Virus record (IMG/VR): IMGVR_UViG_3300048687_000113
Location: 45,244 to 109,243 of that record
Direction: 5' to 3' (one strand)
Source: a virus
Length of the DNA stretch: 64,000 bases
Both the position numbers and the translations under genes were made by a program. Below are positions 2,837 through 6,963 of this stretch, in pieces. The number at the start of each line of letters is the position of its first letter. Within the stretch, counting starts at the first letter, position 1. The notes under the pieces are model-generated. The model was given only the letters and a program-made list of their open reading frames with translations, made no database searches and had not been told where the DNA came from.

Positions 2837-3021
2837 GCCTTCTTGTTCTTCGCCCTGGCGGCCTCAAGCTTGGCGGCGCAGACGTTGCACAGCGGGCTGG
2901 ACGGCCGGCCGGCGGCTCCGTACTTCGGCGCCATGTTTTCGCACCGGGCGCTCGCGCAGGGGCCGGCGCCCTCGCTGGGGCGGACATAGAGGACGACCGG
3001 GTCGGGGGCAGGGGTGCTCAA
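2833..3021 (-). CDS. small Cys-rich (putative Zn-finger) protein
   Basis: CASARC...CNVC motifs; TTG start; converges on the HTH gene. Confidence 0.55.
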   Translation of the reverse strand: MSTPAPDPVVLYVRPSEGAGPCASARCENMAPKYGAAGRPSSPLCNVCAAKLEAARAKNKKA

Positions 3022-3135
3022 GGCGGTGCTTCCTGTTCAGTTCGGGATTCAACAGGAAGGGTACGTCGGCCGGCGCCTTAGCCGGCGAAGCCCAGCTCGG
3101 TGTCCGTGCCGCGAGCAGCGCCCACGCCGACCAGC

Positions 3136-3305
3136 AGCTCCAAGAAAGCACCGAGGAGCTACAGCCGGCGTGGGCCTCCACACAGCTCCAAGAAAGCAGC
3201 GAGGAGCTGCTGCCGGTGGTGACCGCCATGGGTAGCTCCAGGTTCCAGTCAAGGAGCTAGCGGTCCCGCCGACGGAACCTCCAAGGATCAGCCGAGGAGG
3301 TTCCG
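3136..3305. repeat. array of four CTCC-N13-GGAG hairpin/palindrome units
   Basis: Units start at 3136, 3184, 3234 and 3277. All have a 13-nt interior. Compensatory change AGCTCC/GGAGCT to ACCTCC/GGAGGT. Confidence 0.85.
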
Positions 3306-3314
3306 CTGGGGAGG

Positions 3315-3701
3315 TTAGCGCGTGCCCTCTGCTGCGGGCAGGGCCGGTGTCTGGGCGACGCGGCCCTTGCGGACGCGGCGGCGGTGCCGGCGCTCGGCTC
3401 GACGGTTTTCCTTCGGGTTCCATCCGAGAGGGTGGTGCCACGGCTTGCGGACGTTCACGCACTCGTCCGGGGCGTAGTAGCGCGGGTCGTCGGGCCGGGT
3501 GCGGGGACGTCGTGTGAGGCAGAGGCGGCAGGCGCTGAGGTTCTGGTCGTCGAGGTGGGTGCGGGCCCTGTCGAAGAAGTGGGCCAGGATCTCCGCGTCC
3601 CGCTGGGCCTGCTGTTCGGGGGTGAGCGGGGGGTGGGCGGCTCGGTATGCCTCGCCCCAGCGGGTGAGTAACTCGCCGACGGTGATGGTGTGTTGGCTCA
3701 T
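3315..3701 (-). CDS. hypothetical basic protein, probably leaderless
   Basis: MSQHTITVGELL... with a CxxC motif; TACATT -10 box 6 nt upstream of the ATG. Confidence 0.65.
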   Translation of the reverse strand: MSQHTITVGELLTRWGEAYRAAHPPLTPEQQAQRDAEILAHFFDRARTHLDDQNLSACRLCLTRRPRTRPDDPRYYAPDECVNVRKPWHHPLGWNPKENRRAERRHRRRVRKGRVAQTPALPAAEGTR

Positions 3702-3705
3702 GGCG

Positions 3706-3745
3706 GCAATGTAGTGCGCACGCAGTTGCGTACGCACTACATTGC
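3706..3745. promoter_or_regulatory. 40-bp near-perfect palindromic operator/promoter containing TGCGYACGCA-GT-TGCGTACGCA
   Basis: gcaatgtagtgcgcacgca-gt-tgcgtacgcactacattgc (1 mismatch); GTGCGY-N18-TACATT on both strands. Confidence 0.8.
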
Positions 3746-3768
3746 GTTGAAGTTGGCCTGTTGCGGGT

Positions 3769-4095
3769 TCAGGCGGAGCGTTGGGAGCTGGCGCGGAGCT
3801 GGGCGACGACCAGCTCGTGGGCGGCTTCGGCCTCGATGACGGTGCAGGGGTGATGGCCGGCCCACTCGTCTCGCCAGCGGTTGTTGCGGCAGACGCCGGT
3901 GTGGAACATGCTGCCGGCGCCTACCACGCCGGAGTCGATTCCTTCCCACATGGTGCGCACGAGGAGGTCGTCGACTTCGGTCTCGGCCACCAGGCGGTAC
4001 TCGATGTCGGCGAAGAGAACGGCCCACTCCATCACGGCCAGGGGCCGGCCCTCCTTGTCACGGTGGCAGATTCGGTCGGTGGTCTGCTCGTGCAC
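3769..4095 (-). CDS. hypothetical actinophage protein (paralog of 6964-7404)
   Basis: GTG start with AGGAGGAG RBS; shares GRP...LxADIExR...VRT...H motif pattern with the 6964 protein. Confidence 0.75.
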   Translation of the reverse strand: MHEQTTDRICHRDKEGRPLAVMEWAVLFADIEYRLVAETEVDDLLVRTMWEGIDSGVVGAGSMFHTGVCRNNRWRDEWAGHHPCTVIEAEAAHELVVAQLRASSQRSA

Positions 4096-4180
4096 TGCTC
4101 CTCCTGGCTGGGATTTTGCGTCGCGTCGCCTGCCGGGGCGCAGGCTCCGCCGGCCCCATGTTGGGTGAAGTGCCTGCCCG

Positions 4181-4203
4181 TTGTCAGTCGTGCGTGCCAT
4201 AGT
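4181..4203 (+). promoter_or_regulatory. RecA-NDp-type (LexA-independent, DNA-damage) promoter
   Basis: TTGTCAGTC-N8-CATAGT resembles the actinobacterial tTGTCRgtg-N8-TAnnnT consensus; 24 nt before the first repeat. Confidence 0.6.
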
Positions 4204-4227
4204 GGTTGAGCCGTCGGGAAGTTGGGC

Positions 4228-4611
4228 GGTCTCCCCGCGCGAGCGGGGGTGTACCGGTTGAAAGGCACGGCCGCGCTGTTGCCTGGATACTTTCCCCGCC
4301 GACGCGGGGGTGGTCCTTCTTTGTGTTTGATTGCAGGTAGGGATCTTGATTTGACCCCGCGCATGCGGGGATGGCTCGATTTCTAAGGGCATAGCACGAT
4401 GTTCCCCGCGCAAGCGGGGATGGCCCCGCAGTTGAGAGAGCCAGTACTTGCTCCCCGCACACGCGGGGATGGTCCTGTAGTCAAGAGGGCTGGTATTTGC
4501 TCCCCGCGCACGCGGGGATGCTCCGCTTCGGCGGAGGTGGATCGAAACGGCATCTCGTGAGAGGTCCCTGAAGATCTCAGAAAACCGCTCCGCACACGCG
4601 GAGGTACGCGG
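4228..4611 (+). CRISPR. Cas-less degenerate type I-E-like CRISPR mini-array (6 clear repeats plus 2 GGAG-type repeats)
   Basis: 29-nt repeats at 4228, 4289, 4350, 4399, 4448 and 4497 with CCCCGC-N4-GCGGGG stem; spacers 32, 32, 20, 20, 20 nt; CTCCGC-N4-GCGGAG repeats at 4516 (overlapping) and 4583. Confidence 0.88.
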
Positions 4612-4705
4612 AAGGCTCGTCTCCTGGGGAGGCGGGCCTTTCGTCTTGCCTGGGATGTCGGGGGTGTTGGGGATGCGCGGTTTGGCATATGCCAACTCGT
4701 GACTG

Positions 4706-4727
4706 TGCGTACGCAGTTGCGTGCGCA
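4706..4727. promoter_or_regulatory. TGCGTACGCA-GT-TGCGTGCGCA operator, copy 2
   Basis: Same tandem palindrome as at 3715-3736 and 12339-12360. Confidence 0.75.
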
Positions 4728-4848
4728 GCCACTACCTTCGTGATACGCGCCACATCGGCCCGGGGAGCGGTCCCGGCCAACGGGTGCGCGGCGCGGGGAC
4801 GGTCTGCCGGAGTGCGGGCAGGTCGTGACGTTCGGCAGGAGGTTCCCG

Positions 4849-5274
4849 ATGGGTTCGGTAGACCAGCTCCACAGGATGCTCGGTGAGGTCAACCGGTTGG
4901 AGGGTTACGACCCGAGAGCGCCGAAGCTGCCGGCGGTGCCTGCGCACTGCCGCCGGCACGGGACACCCTACTCGCCGCAGGACACCATCAACGGGCTGTT
5001 GTGCTGCGCCTCGTGCCTGGCGGAGTCGGATCTGAAGCGGTACGAGGAGTCGAAGCATGAGCGAGACGGTGATGAGCTGGGAGGCGGCGCGGAGGCTGCT
5101 GAAGCGGGACCCGGAGGCGGTGGTGTCGAGCCTGTCGTGGGCGCAGCCGGGCAAATGCATTTTCAGAGCCAAGGCGTTCGTGGTGGTGCCGGCGGCGGCG
5201 ATCACCAAGGAGGAGCCGGTGGGCGCGATGCCGATCAGCGAGCAGGAGAGCATTCCGGCGCTGTGGTTCCGTGA
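4849..5274 (+). CDS. hypothetical protein, Cys/His-rich N-terminal part
   Basis: ATG with CAGGAGG RBS; CRRH...CCASC. The 3' half overlaps the next gene, so the C-terminal extent is doubtful. Confidence 0.5.
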   Translation: MGSVDQLHRMLGEVNRLEGYDPRAPKLPAVPAHCRRHGTPYSPQDTINGLLCCASCLAESDLKRYEESKHERDGDELGGGAEAAEAGPGGGGVEPVVGAAGQMHFQSQGVRGGAGGGDHQGGAGGRDADQRAGEHSGAVVP

Positions 5275-5365
5275 CCAGGCGGGGCGGGTGGGCCCGTATG
5301 CCGGTTCGGCGTTCGGGGATGAGCGTGATGACTGGGTGGTGGGGCCGTCGGTCGGCGATTCCTGA
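5057..5365 (+). CDS. DUF2829 / Tad2-like anti-defence (nucleotide sponge) protein
   Basis: MSWEAARRLLK..VVSSLSW..PGKCI and PALWFRDQAGRVGPYAGS...DDWVV follow the DUF2829 pattern (FxxAxxxLKxG..V.R..W; PY....G...PW..S..D.LA.DW); GAGGAG RBS. Confidence 0.65.
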   Translation: MSETVMSWEAARRLLKRDPEAVVSSLSWAQPGKCIFRAKAFVVVPAAAITKEEPVGAMPISEQESIPALWFRDQAGRVGPYAGSAFGDERDDWVVGPSVGDS

Positions 5366-5397
5366 CGCGGTGCGGGCCGCAGCCTCTTTTGTGCTGG

Positions 5398-5448
5398 CCC
5401 CGCAGGTGTGTCGTCCTCCCCCGGCCGGCACGCCTGCGGGGTCTTTTT
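5398..5448 (+). terminator. intrinsic terminator
   Basis: cccgcaggtgtg...cacgcctgcggg stem followed by tcttttt. Confidence 0.7.
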
Positions 5449-5503
5449 GTGTCTTTTTTCGCGGTGGGACGATTGCGGTCAAATGCCTTGTAAGGAGACC
5501 GGT

Positions 5504-6397
5504 ATGGCCGTGACGAGTTCCGCGACGTTGTCCGCTGGTGAAGTGCCGGCCGAGGTTTCGGTGGAGGTTGTTTCCGATACGAGCGTTCGGGTCTCCTGGA
5601 CGAGTGCGGAGGACCCGCTGGGCTTTGTCGTGGCGTGGTCGGTCGCCGGCGCGGAAGCCTGGACGGAGCGGCAGGTGTCGGGGGGCGCGCGGAGCCTGGT
5701 GGCGACGGGGCTGCGGCCGGGGACGGGGTACGTGTTCCGGGTGCAGTCCGAGTCGGTCTGGAGTACGGAGGCCGGCGCGGAGACGACGGGCTCGACGCTC
5801 GGGGCGCCCACGCTGCTCGTGGGCGACATCCTGGACCGCAACGCGAGTGTGAGTGTGCTGTCCCCATTCCTGGTGAGCCAGGCGCGTGTCGTCGAGGCGC
5901 AGGTGCGGGACACCCGGACGGACAGTCCCTGGTATTCCGTCTCGGATGTGCCGTGGAATCTGGCGGCGGTGGGTCTGTATGAGACGGGGTTCGGGCTGAA
6001 GGGGCTGTCGACGGGAACCACGTATGCGGTGCGGGCCCGGGTCACGGCCGGCGAGGTGGTGTCGGAGTGGTCGCCGGAGACGCGGTTCACGACGACTGGG
6101 ACCAGGAGTGGGAAGCCGAGCCTGTCGGTGGTGGCGGACTCGGCGACGTACAGCTCGGTGAAGCTGACGTGGGGGACGTCGCTGAAGGCGACGGTGCGGA
6201 TTCACCGGTGGGTCAGGTCGACGTCGCCGGGCTCTCCGTTCCTGTCGCAGCAGGTCGGGTATTCCACGGACCTGGCGGGGACATTCACGGACTCGGGTCT
6301 GTCCCAGGGGACGGACTATTGGTACACGGTCGAGTGGGTGCGGGATTCGCGGACGATCAGTGTTTCGAATCCTGTTGCTGTACGAACGCGGGGCTAG
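5504..6397 (+). CDS. fibronectin type III repeat protein (about 3 domains)
   Basis: SVRVSW...GLRPGTGYVFRV, GLSTGTTYAVRAR, SVKLTW...SGLSQGTDYWYTV; AAGGAG RBS. Confidence 0.85.
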   Translation: MAVTSSATLSAGEVPAEVSVEVVSDTSVRVSWTSAEDPLGFVVAWSVAGAEAWTERQVSGGARSLVATGLRPGTGYVFRVQSESVWSTEAGAETTGSTLGAPTLLVGDILDRNASVSVLSPFLVSQARVVEAQVRDTRTDSPWYSVSDVPWNLAAVGLYETGFGLKGLSTGTTYAVRARVTAGEVVSEWSPETRFTTTGTRSGKPSLSVVADSATYSSVKLTWGTSLKATVRIHRWVRSTSPGSPFLSQQVGYSTDLAGTFTDSGLSQGTDYWYTVEWVRDSRTISVSNPVAVRTRG

Positions 6398-6963
6398 GGG
6401 AGGCTGGTTCGGGGCGGGTGCCGCACTGTTATTCAGGTGATGGGGATAACGGACGCGAAGCGCCTGGACTTTCACCTCGCGGATAAGGCATGTGCCCGCG
6501 TAGAAACTGTGCTGTATTCGTGAAGAAATACGGCAGACGACAGTTGCCGGTGATACCTGGTGGGGCGTATGAGTGTTCGCCAGCAATCACGAACCCAGGC
6601 CATACCCCTTACCGGGGGTGACCGTACTGCCGAGTAGTCTCGCTATTCGGGACACCATCTCCGGCATTTCGGATGCATTCACCGAGCGGCATATGCCGAG
6701 CACGCATCCACCCGGAGCACAAGGCCGCCGTCACTCATTCGAGTGACAGGCCAACAATTTTTCAATTCCGCCGTGACTGACCCCGGGGCGTGTGGGTTGA
6801 TAGTTCTGCGGTGGACACGGCGGGCCCCCGAGCCTCTTCCATTTGCTCTCGGGGGCTTGCTGTCCGCCAAGGCCGGTCCGGCACAGAGGCCGCGCAGCAA
6901 ACCCCCCCTGCCTGCGCCTGCCTCTGTGCCGGGCCCTTCCGTTTTGAAGGGAGAGAAACTGTC

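Follow-up and report, generated by a model that had tools for sequence, protein, structure and literature searches.

An array of type I-E-like CRISPR repeats on a phage genome, with every repeat different and no cas gene beside it, raises the question of whether it is the decaying remnant of a host CRISPR array or a selected element that acts through the Cas proteins of the host. The array considered here lies in a 64-kb stretch of DNA (hereafter the window), which is the right-hand part of a 109,243-bp IMG/VR virus record, complete according to CheckV. The TerL of this record is 55% identical to those of the Streptomyces phages BRock, GiJojo and LuckySocke (each ~113 kb) and, judged by the sequence of its phage-like terminase, the array-bearing element is a phage.

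Genomic setting and anatomy of the array

A preliminary description, made from the letters of the window, had found no cas gene there. This now extends to the whole 109-kb record, where hidden Markov models of Cas6e, Cas7e, Cas1, Cse1 and Cas3-HD have no match. The array is therefore located outside any CRISPR-cas locus, and a cognate cas operon elsewhere on the element, of which the array might have been a degenerate trailer, was not found in the record with these five models. The array sits in a 753-bp stretch that displays no codon bias in a GC3 frame plot and is non-coding. It is flanked by divergent genes, one leftward (3769-4095) and one rightward (4849-5274). The region 3000-6500 has no blastn match among GenBank phages, IMG/VR holds no relative of the flanking 108-aa protein, and the open reading frames beside the array have no Pfam, PHROG or PDB sequence match. 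An Acr/Aca neighbour or a 'Tad2-like' operon beside the array was also considered and found no support in the Pfam, PHROG and PDB searches.

Six exact CCCCGC-N4-GCGGGG stems are present on the + strand between 4228 and 4611 (Table 1). There is no seventh in the window or in the whole 109,243-bp record, and shuffled windows contain a mean of 0.12 such matches. The six 29-nt repeats built on these stems have pairwise identities of 62-90% (mean 73%) and no two are alike; the columns that never vary are those of both stem halves, of the handle TG and of a single C. The handles begin with RTG, and the order of hairpin and then handle corresponds to the crRNA sense on the + strand. Two additional hairpins have CTCCGC-N4-GCGGAG stems, and between them is a guide of 38 nt. 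In all, eight hairpins enclose six different tandem guides within 384 nt. The preliminary description had listed the six CCCCGC repeats and the two CTCCGC stems, all repeats different, with RTG-initiated handles and the first five spacer lengths; these hold at the same positions, and the sixth guide is added here.

Table 1. Features of the array locus; positions are those of the window
Feature	Position	Strand	Remarks
Leader, non-coding, candidate promoter	4096-4227	+	GC3 frame plot, alignment A1
Repeat mimic 1	4228-4256	+	CCCCGC stem 4233-4248, 8-nt handle 4249-4256
Guide 1, 32 nt	4257-4288	+	
Repeat mimic 2	4289-4317	+	CCCCGC stem from 4294
Guide 2, 32 nt	4318-4349	+	
Repeat mimic 3	4350-4378	+	CCCCGC stem from 4355
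Guide 3, 20 nt	4379-4398	+	
Repeat mimic 4	4399-4427	+	CCCCGC stem from 4404
Guide 4, 20 nt	4428-4447	+	
Repeat mimic 5	4448-4476	+	CCCCGC stem from 4453
Guide 5, 20 nt	4477-4496	+	13/20 identical to guide 4
Repeat mimic 6	4497-4525	+	CCCCGC stem from 4502; of all mimics nearest to real actinobacterial I-E repeats
Repeat mimic 7	4521-4544	+	CTCCGC stem 4521-4536, overlapping the handle of mimic 6; handle 4537-4544; spacer absent after mimic 6
Guide 6, 38 nt (32 + 6)	4545-4582	+	
Repeat mimic 8	4583-4611	+	CTCCGC stem 4588-4603
Terminator-like hairpin, then T-rich sequence	4608-4652	+	Fold -42.2 kcal/mol, z -5.0

Guides 4 and 5 resemble one another, and the 49-nt units to which they belong are 76% identical, which points to tandem duplication as the origin of these units. 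A 25-nt core of repeat mimic 6 is found exactly in 19 genome stretches. The spacerless juxtaposition of mimics 6 and 7 recurs in three homologous arrays (L016, L107 and G207, see below). RNA folding shows that the 3′ end of the array is formed by a strong hairpin followed by T-rich sequence, a structure that a terminator scan had missed. With repeats only 62-90% identical, spacers of 20-38 nt and no cas genes, the locus is not a canonical type I-E array. In Rfam, no family reaches its gathering score over the array, and there are only weak matches to CRISPR-DR28 (E 0.016 and 2.3).

A scan of 3600-5200 for the sigma-70 consensus found nothing, and a canonical promoter was not found. An open reading frame at 2288-2836 has a weak match to sigma-70 region 4, slightly under the Pfam cut-offs; a phage sigma factor encoded there could be the reason for a non-canonical leader promoter. 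A 23-bp near-palindromic motif lies within a 40-bp perfect palindrome (3706-3745) to the left of the array, and is repeated at 4705-4727, just right of the array terminator. The motif precedes the leader in the G207 prophage as well (L458, about 6195-6215). By its appearance the motif may be the operator of a single repressor, with copies on both sides of this early region. To the right, within 4825-5365, codon bias switches frame near 5000-5057, where the GC3 signal is lost in the open reading frame 4849-5274 and gained in 5057-5365. A frameshift, an overlap or a first gene of short length may underlie this.

Relatives of the locus and arrays of the same build

Among 391 Streptomyces genomes scanned by pattern for 49-nt units, G207 has a unit whose first 12 guide letters are those of guide 3 (12/12; L458 6420-6439). 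The site lies in a Streptomyces prophage that shares synteny with the array phage along 14 kb or more (70-84% nucleotide identity). The prophage locus keeps the leader, the hairpins, the terminal CTCCGC module and the terminator (alignment A1). A leader block of 27 nt (4182-4208) is identical in the two, and part of this block also stands before another Streptomyces array (L454). Two of the G207 stems stay paired via U.G wobbles, which are possible in the + strand RNA only, and the G207 terminator differs from that of the array phage by one compensatory pair change.

The guides display a mixture of constancy and replacement. Relative to G207, the array phage has one additional unit at the 5′ end and an additional tandem duplicate (unit 5), and the position of guide 4 is occupied in G207 by a different guide. 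Guide 6 agrees with its counterpart at 27 of 38 positions, among them all of the first 6. Guide 2, with its 32 nt, corresponds to the 20-nt first guide of G207 plus a clean 12-nt insertion near the far end; four of the first nine seed positions differ, so some units may have drifted. As a side observation, the G207 prophage has a 2.8-kb insertion directly after the array terminator (L458 6650-9423), which is absent from the array phage and encodes a DUF7873 protein and one or two family-less open reading frames.

The whole array is also present in a soil relative (run X3, a 15.7-kb contig) that is ~92% identical. Every listed change in guides 1 and 2 of X3 is at position 15 or beyond, a pattern (0 earlier changes seen, ~2.3 expected) of small statistical weight. 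No RNA run is listed among the sequencing runs with the array stretch, and the contigs signify presence only. L016 and L107, viral contigs of 156 kb each, have unit 1 and the terminal module in common with the array phage, as well as counterparts of the terminator, and are not otherwise related to it. Guide 1 and the 32-nt guides of these contigs agree at 11-12 of the first 14 positions, and at 6 of the remaining 18, which is chance level. The array that the preliminary description proposed to look for in related phages thus exists in G207 and X3, with homologous units in L016 and L107.

Arrays of the same build are found in other viruses. A scan of IMG/VR for two CCCCGC-type stems 49 nt apart gave 35 contigs; in many of them the repeats are heterogeneous, and periods of 49 nt are mixed with periods of 61 nt. 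When periods of 36-60 nt were scanned, counts in the sample of matches listed peak at 43, 49-50, 54-55 and 60 nt. Among the matches listed, spacer lengths of the viral I-E-like arrays cluster at 14, 20-21, 25-26 and 31 nt, and taken modulo 6 they are not uniformly distributed (p = 5e-6). Real host I-E arrays are uniform, with a 61-nt period. Between its genes 53 and 54, the cultured Streptomyces phage Piccadilly (OL455886.1; L157 1440-1740) has six heterogeneous I-E hairpins that are not annotated; their periods are about 61, 60, 58, 49 and 51 nt, and ~10 related phages also carry such an array. Similar arrays with terminators are present in several Streptomyces genomes. Additional heterogeneous arrays, of 4-10 hairpins with 14-25-nt spacers and a terminator-like hairpin after each, were seen in Streptomycetaceae genomes (L466 1147-1560, G634:C7; L454; L464; L445) and are probably prophage-borne. 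Single 20-nt spacers were observed within or at the edge of regular host I-E arrays (L446 1489-1553, L452 1488-1553).

In type I-E systems, 12 nt correspond to two Cas7 steps, as known from work on shortened E. coli crRNAs. Perhaps guide length is a selected and switchable type I-E trait. This speculation, which we consider doubtful as a whole, builds on orthologous units that switch between 20 and 32 nt by clean 12-nt indels and on the clustering of lengths at 14, 20, 26, 32 and 38 nt in viral I-E mimic arrays. Each unit would then build a Cascade of set size. That size could determine which complexes escape a putative protein partner, much as short Csy complexes of type I-F are spared by AcrIF24, or which class of host regulator, cas-repressing or safeguard, is impersonated.

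Host regulators and the guides of viral arrays

In Salmonella, the type I-E CreR RNA forms 15 nt of pairing with a site that lies upstream of casA and is flanked by AAG (bioRxiv 10.1101/2023.03.10.532045). Streptomyces equivalents of CreR/CreA were identified in cse1 loci, at least 12 of 113 of which carry mini-arrays with a guide that pairs with a nearby site over its first 14-17 nt. Mismatches between guide and site occur only at positions 6 and 12, which are flipped out by Cascade. One class of these mini-arrays (L191, L194, L195, L245, L248, L256, L258, L265) has a CTCCGC stem, a GTG-type handle and guides of 31-38 nt, and its sites have an AAG PAM and lie 235-410 nt before cse1; this class might guard a small toxin gene in the manner of CreTA. 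A second class (L160, L186/L443, L444, L448, L467) has a CCCCGC stem, 20-21-nt guides and sites with an AAC PAM; the site of the L186 regulator overlaps a -10-like hexamer. Like the phage array, the host mini-arrays have a degenerate repeat-guide-repeat structure. They differ in being single, self-regulating units within cas loci, whereas the array is multi-unit and resides on a phage.

Each of these host classes has its equivalent among the stem types of the phage array. The preliminary description had proposed that the two repeat families serve to titrate several Cascade variants. From the sequences, they are better read as copies of the two classes of host self-regulating mini-arrays.

By its motif, guide 3 is of one family with the regulator guides of host loci L186 and L160. 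When at least 9 PAM-proximal matches with a host regulator guide are considered, the homologous viral array of L016 has them with host L186: its unit 1 is 17/20 identical to that regulator and is followed by the same downstream repeat. Among the six guides of the array phage, guide 3 is nearest, with 12/12, but the match is to the prophage copy. Pairing with a PAM-flanked site in a cas promoter is found for related viral guides. L216, L221, L222 and L227 have at the cse1 promoter an AAG-flanked site that is matched by the 20-nt guide of L010 and, with one mismatch, by the first guide of G207. A separate observation concerns the 32-nt guide of L016 and L107, which belongs to the guide 1 family. 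Its seed matches, in antisense, a conserved site within the cse1 coding region (12/12 in L174, about 2326 on the minus strand; also in L167, L180, L181, L184 and L187), with CAG or GAG as PAM. This could be a chance match (roughly p 0.1) or an intragenic roadblock site.

The array's own six guides were searched by seed and PAM in the 113 Streptomyces cse1 loci and gave no match above shuffled controls, nor do they have a host-regulator twin among the regulators with 49-nt units in ~790 genomes (792 scanned). The guide 6 seed preceded by AAG occurs once in 391 genomes, in an unrelated secreted-protein gene. The guide 3 seed preceded by AAN occurs three times in 121 genomes, never near cas genes and in one case in a genome without Cse1. 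Scans for the guide 3 seed in metagenomes and for the guide 5 seed in IMG/VR revealed chance matches in unrelated DNA only. The I-E locus of G207 itself has no site for the guides of its prophage or for the six guides of the array phage, and there is no guide match in the array phage's own genome. The two 32-nt guides have no match beyond chance in 50,697 GenBank phage records. Thus cas promoters (113 cse1 loci, six guides) and phages (two 32-nt guides), which the preliminary description had named among the candidate targets, yielded none. Three weak look-alikes were set aside as not being evidence: guide 5 with the cse1 ribosome-binding region of L214, guide 4 with that of L222/L227, and guide 2 with the promoter site of L221.

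Proposed mechanism, competing readings and significance

The data support the view that this is a selected cas-less array that would use host type I-E proteins, and not a decaying remnant, because the leader, hairpins and terminator are conserved in synteny, stems are kept by wobble and compensatory changes, spacer length changes by a clean 12-nt indel while guide starts are conserved and ends drift, and a homologous array copies host regulator RNAs. The preliminary description had also favoured selection over decay, and on this point the comparison supports it.

The anatomy of the array, its pattern of conservation and its homology to arrays whose units match host circuits argue for a mechanism of the Cracr type. 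On comparative grounds, it appears reasonably probable that the locus is a phage-borne 'Cracr array' of crRNA-like RNAs working with host Streptomyces type I-E Cas proteins; transcription, processing, loading and the targets of the six guides are what we infer. The + strand would be transcribed from the conserved leader to the terminator, and host Cas6e would cut after each hairpin. The released units, of 61, 61, 49, 49, 49 and 67 nt, would consist of an 8-nt handle at the 5′ end, the guide, and a hairpin at the 3′ end. On these units host Cascade would assemble, with an expected ~4 Cas7 subunits on the 20-nt guides, 6 on the 32-nt guides and 7 on the 38-nt guide, and the loaded complexes would compete with the host's own crRNAs. 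By partial pairing near the PAM (about 12-17 nt), complexes may sit on cas-locus promoters without triggering Cas3. The predicted result is a shutdown of cas genes and possibly of a linked safeguard gene. With its several unlike units, the array would serve against a range of host I-E locus variants.

Cracrs are viral crRNA-like regulatory anti-CRISPR RNAs, often arrayed, that repress cas or creT promoters and compete for Cas proteins. The I-E arrays reported comprise 16 with two guides and 4 with three. Viral guides of type I-F are mostly 17-21 nt. Cryo-EM reveals complexes with fewer backbone subunits (Liu et al., bioRxiv 10.1101/2024.10.29.618823). The present array resembles CracrIE of the Salmonella Se29 prophage in being phage-borne, outside a cas locus and formed of degenerate I-E repeat mimics. 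Other likenesses are several different short guides in tandem on what would be one transcript (those in the preprint have 21 and 24 nt), shorter guides with, as predicted here, fewer backbone subunits, and a predicted action of host Cascade on cas promoters together with competition for Cas proteins. Unlike the reported arrays, with their maximum of three guides, this one has six; guides of 20, 32 and 38 nt and two stem types are mixed, and the host is Streptomyces. The match with host CreR/CreA or a cas promoter that defines Cracrs is seen here only in homologous arrays (L016, L010 and the first guide of G207). Viral pairs and triplets of repeat-like sequences, with spacers in which partial matches to intergenic regions of cas loci are enriched, are described by Shmakov et al. 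(2023; PMC10120712). Actinobacterial viral mini-arrays are mentioned there; the Streptomyces lineage of the array and length classes in 6-nt steps were not found in the passages drawn on here.

The alternative that survives best is a pure repeat decoy, in which only the hairpins would matter, trapping Cas6e and Cas7 in dead-end complexes, with the spacers serving as linkers. Such RNAs exist as Racrs, solitary repeats without a guide, type I-E examples of which have been tested experimentally (Camara-Wilpert et al., 2023; PMC10651486). The array shares with Racrs that it consists of phage-borne CRISPR-repeat mimics thought to act through host Cas proteins, and the stems are all preserved between variable flanks, no spacer separates mimics 6 and 7, and the searches made found no target for any guide. 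Linkers are nevertheless difficult to reconcile with guide starts that are conserved between relatives while ends drift, with lengths that shift by a clean 12-nt step and cluster in 6-nt steps, and with the copying of host regulator guides by homologous arrays. Racrs are, moreover, defined as solitary, and SRUFinder, the program that finds them, discards repeats clustered within 100 bp (PMC10651486). Here eight repeats lie within 384 nt around six guides with conserved starts, and the array does not belong to the Racrs. A pure decoy therefore seems unlikely to us. The preliminary description had left open a decoy or an array that redirects Cascade; the guide function is the part that fits better, and a pure Racr-type decoy fits less well.

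Less likely again is a working mini-CRISPR array with which host Cas proteins would destroy rival phages or plasmids (superinfection exclusion), at least via the 32-nt spacers. Two spacers do have this canonical length, and viral mini-arrays with such a role are known (cited in PMC10120712). The absence of matches beyond chance for these spacers in the phage records, and of any match in the phage's own genome, does not favour interference, and neither does conservation of guide 1 that is limited to its first 14 nt, nor the heterogeneous repeats and the non-canonical length of four of the six guides. That the array is a functionless, decaying remnant of a host CRISPR array acquired by the phage is very improbable, since its degenerate repeats, irregular spacer lengths and a repeat 6 core identical to real host repeats are outweighed by a locus kept in the same place, with leader and terminator, in a prophage only 70-84% identical, by hairpins that can all still fold (in G207 via wobble pairs), and by recurrence of the architecture in unrelated phages, including cultured ones.

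Returning to the Cracr-type array, it most likely borrows host CRISPR proteins to blunt host immunity, and represents a large new example and not a new principle, as the trick was described between 2023 and 2026 (viral regulatory mini-arrays, short-spacer Cracr arrays and fewer backbone subunits). To the published kind it adds an unusually long array of six guides and the copying of both host regulator classes on what is presumed to be one transcript. It also adds syntenic relatives that reveal how such an array evolves: by unit gain, duplication, replacement and 12-nt length steps. Bench tests of the idea are within reach, since arrays built in this way, though not annotated, occur in cultured and publicly available Streptomyces phages (the Piccadilly group). 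If it is true, one short phage transcript would disarm, by RNA alone, several variants of the commonest CRISPR type of Streptomyces. This would bear on phage host range in an antibiotic-producing genus, and on the use of native I-E systems in Streptomyces engineering.
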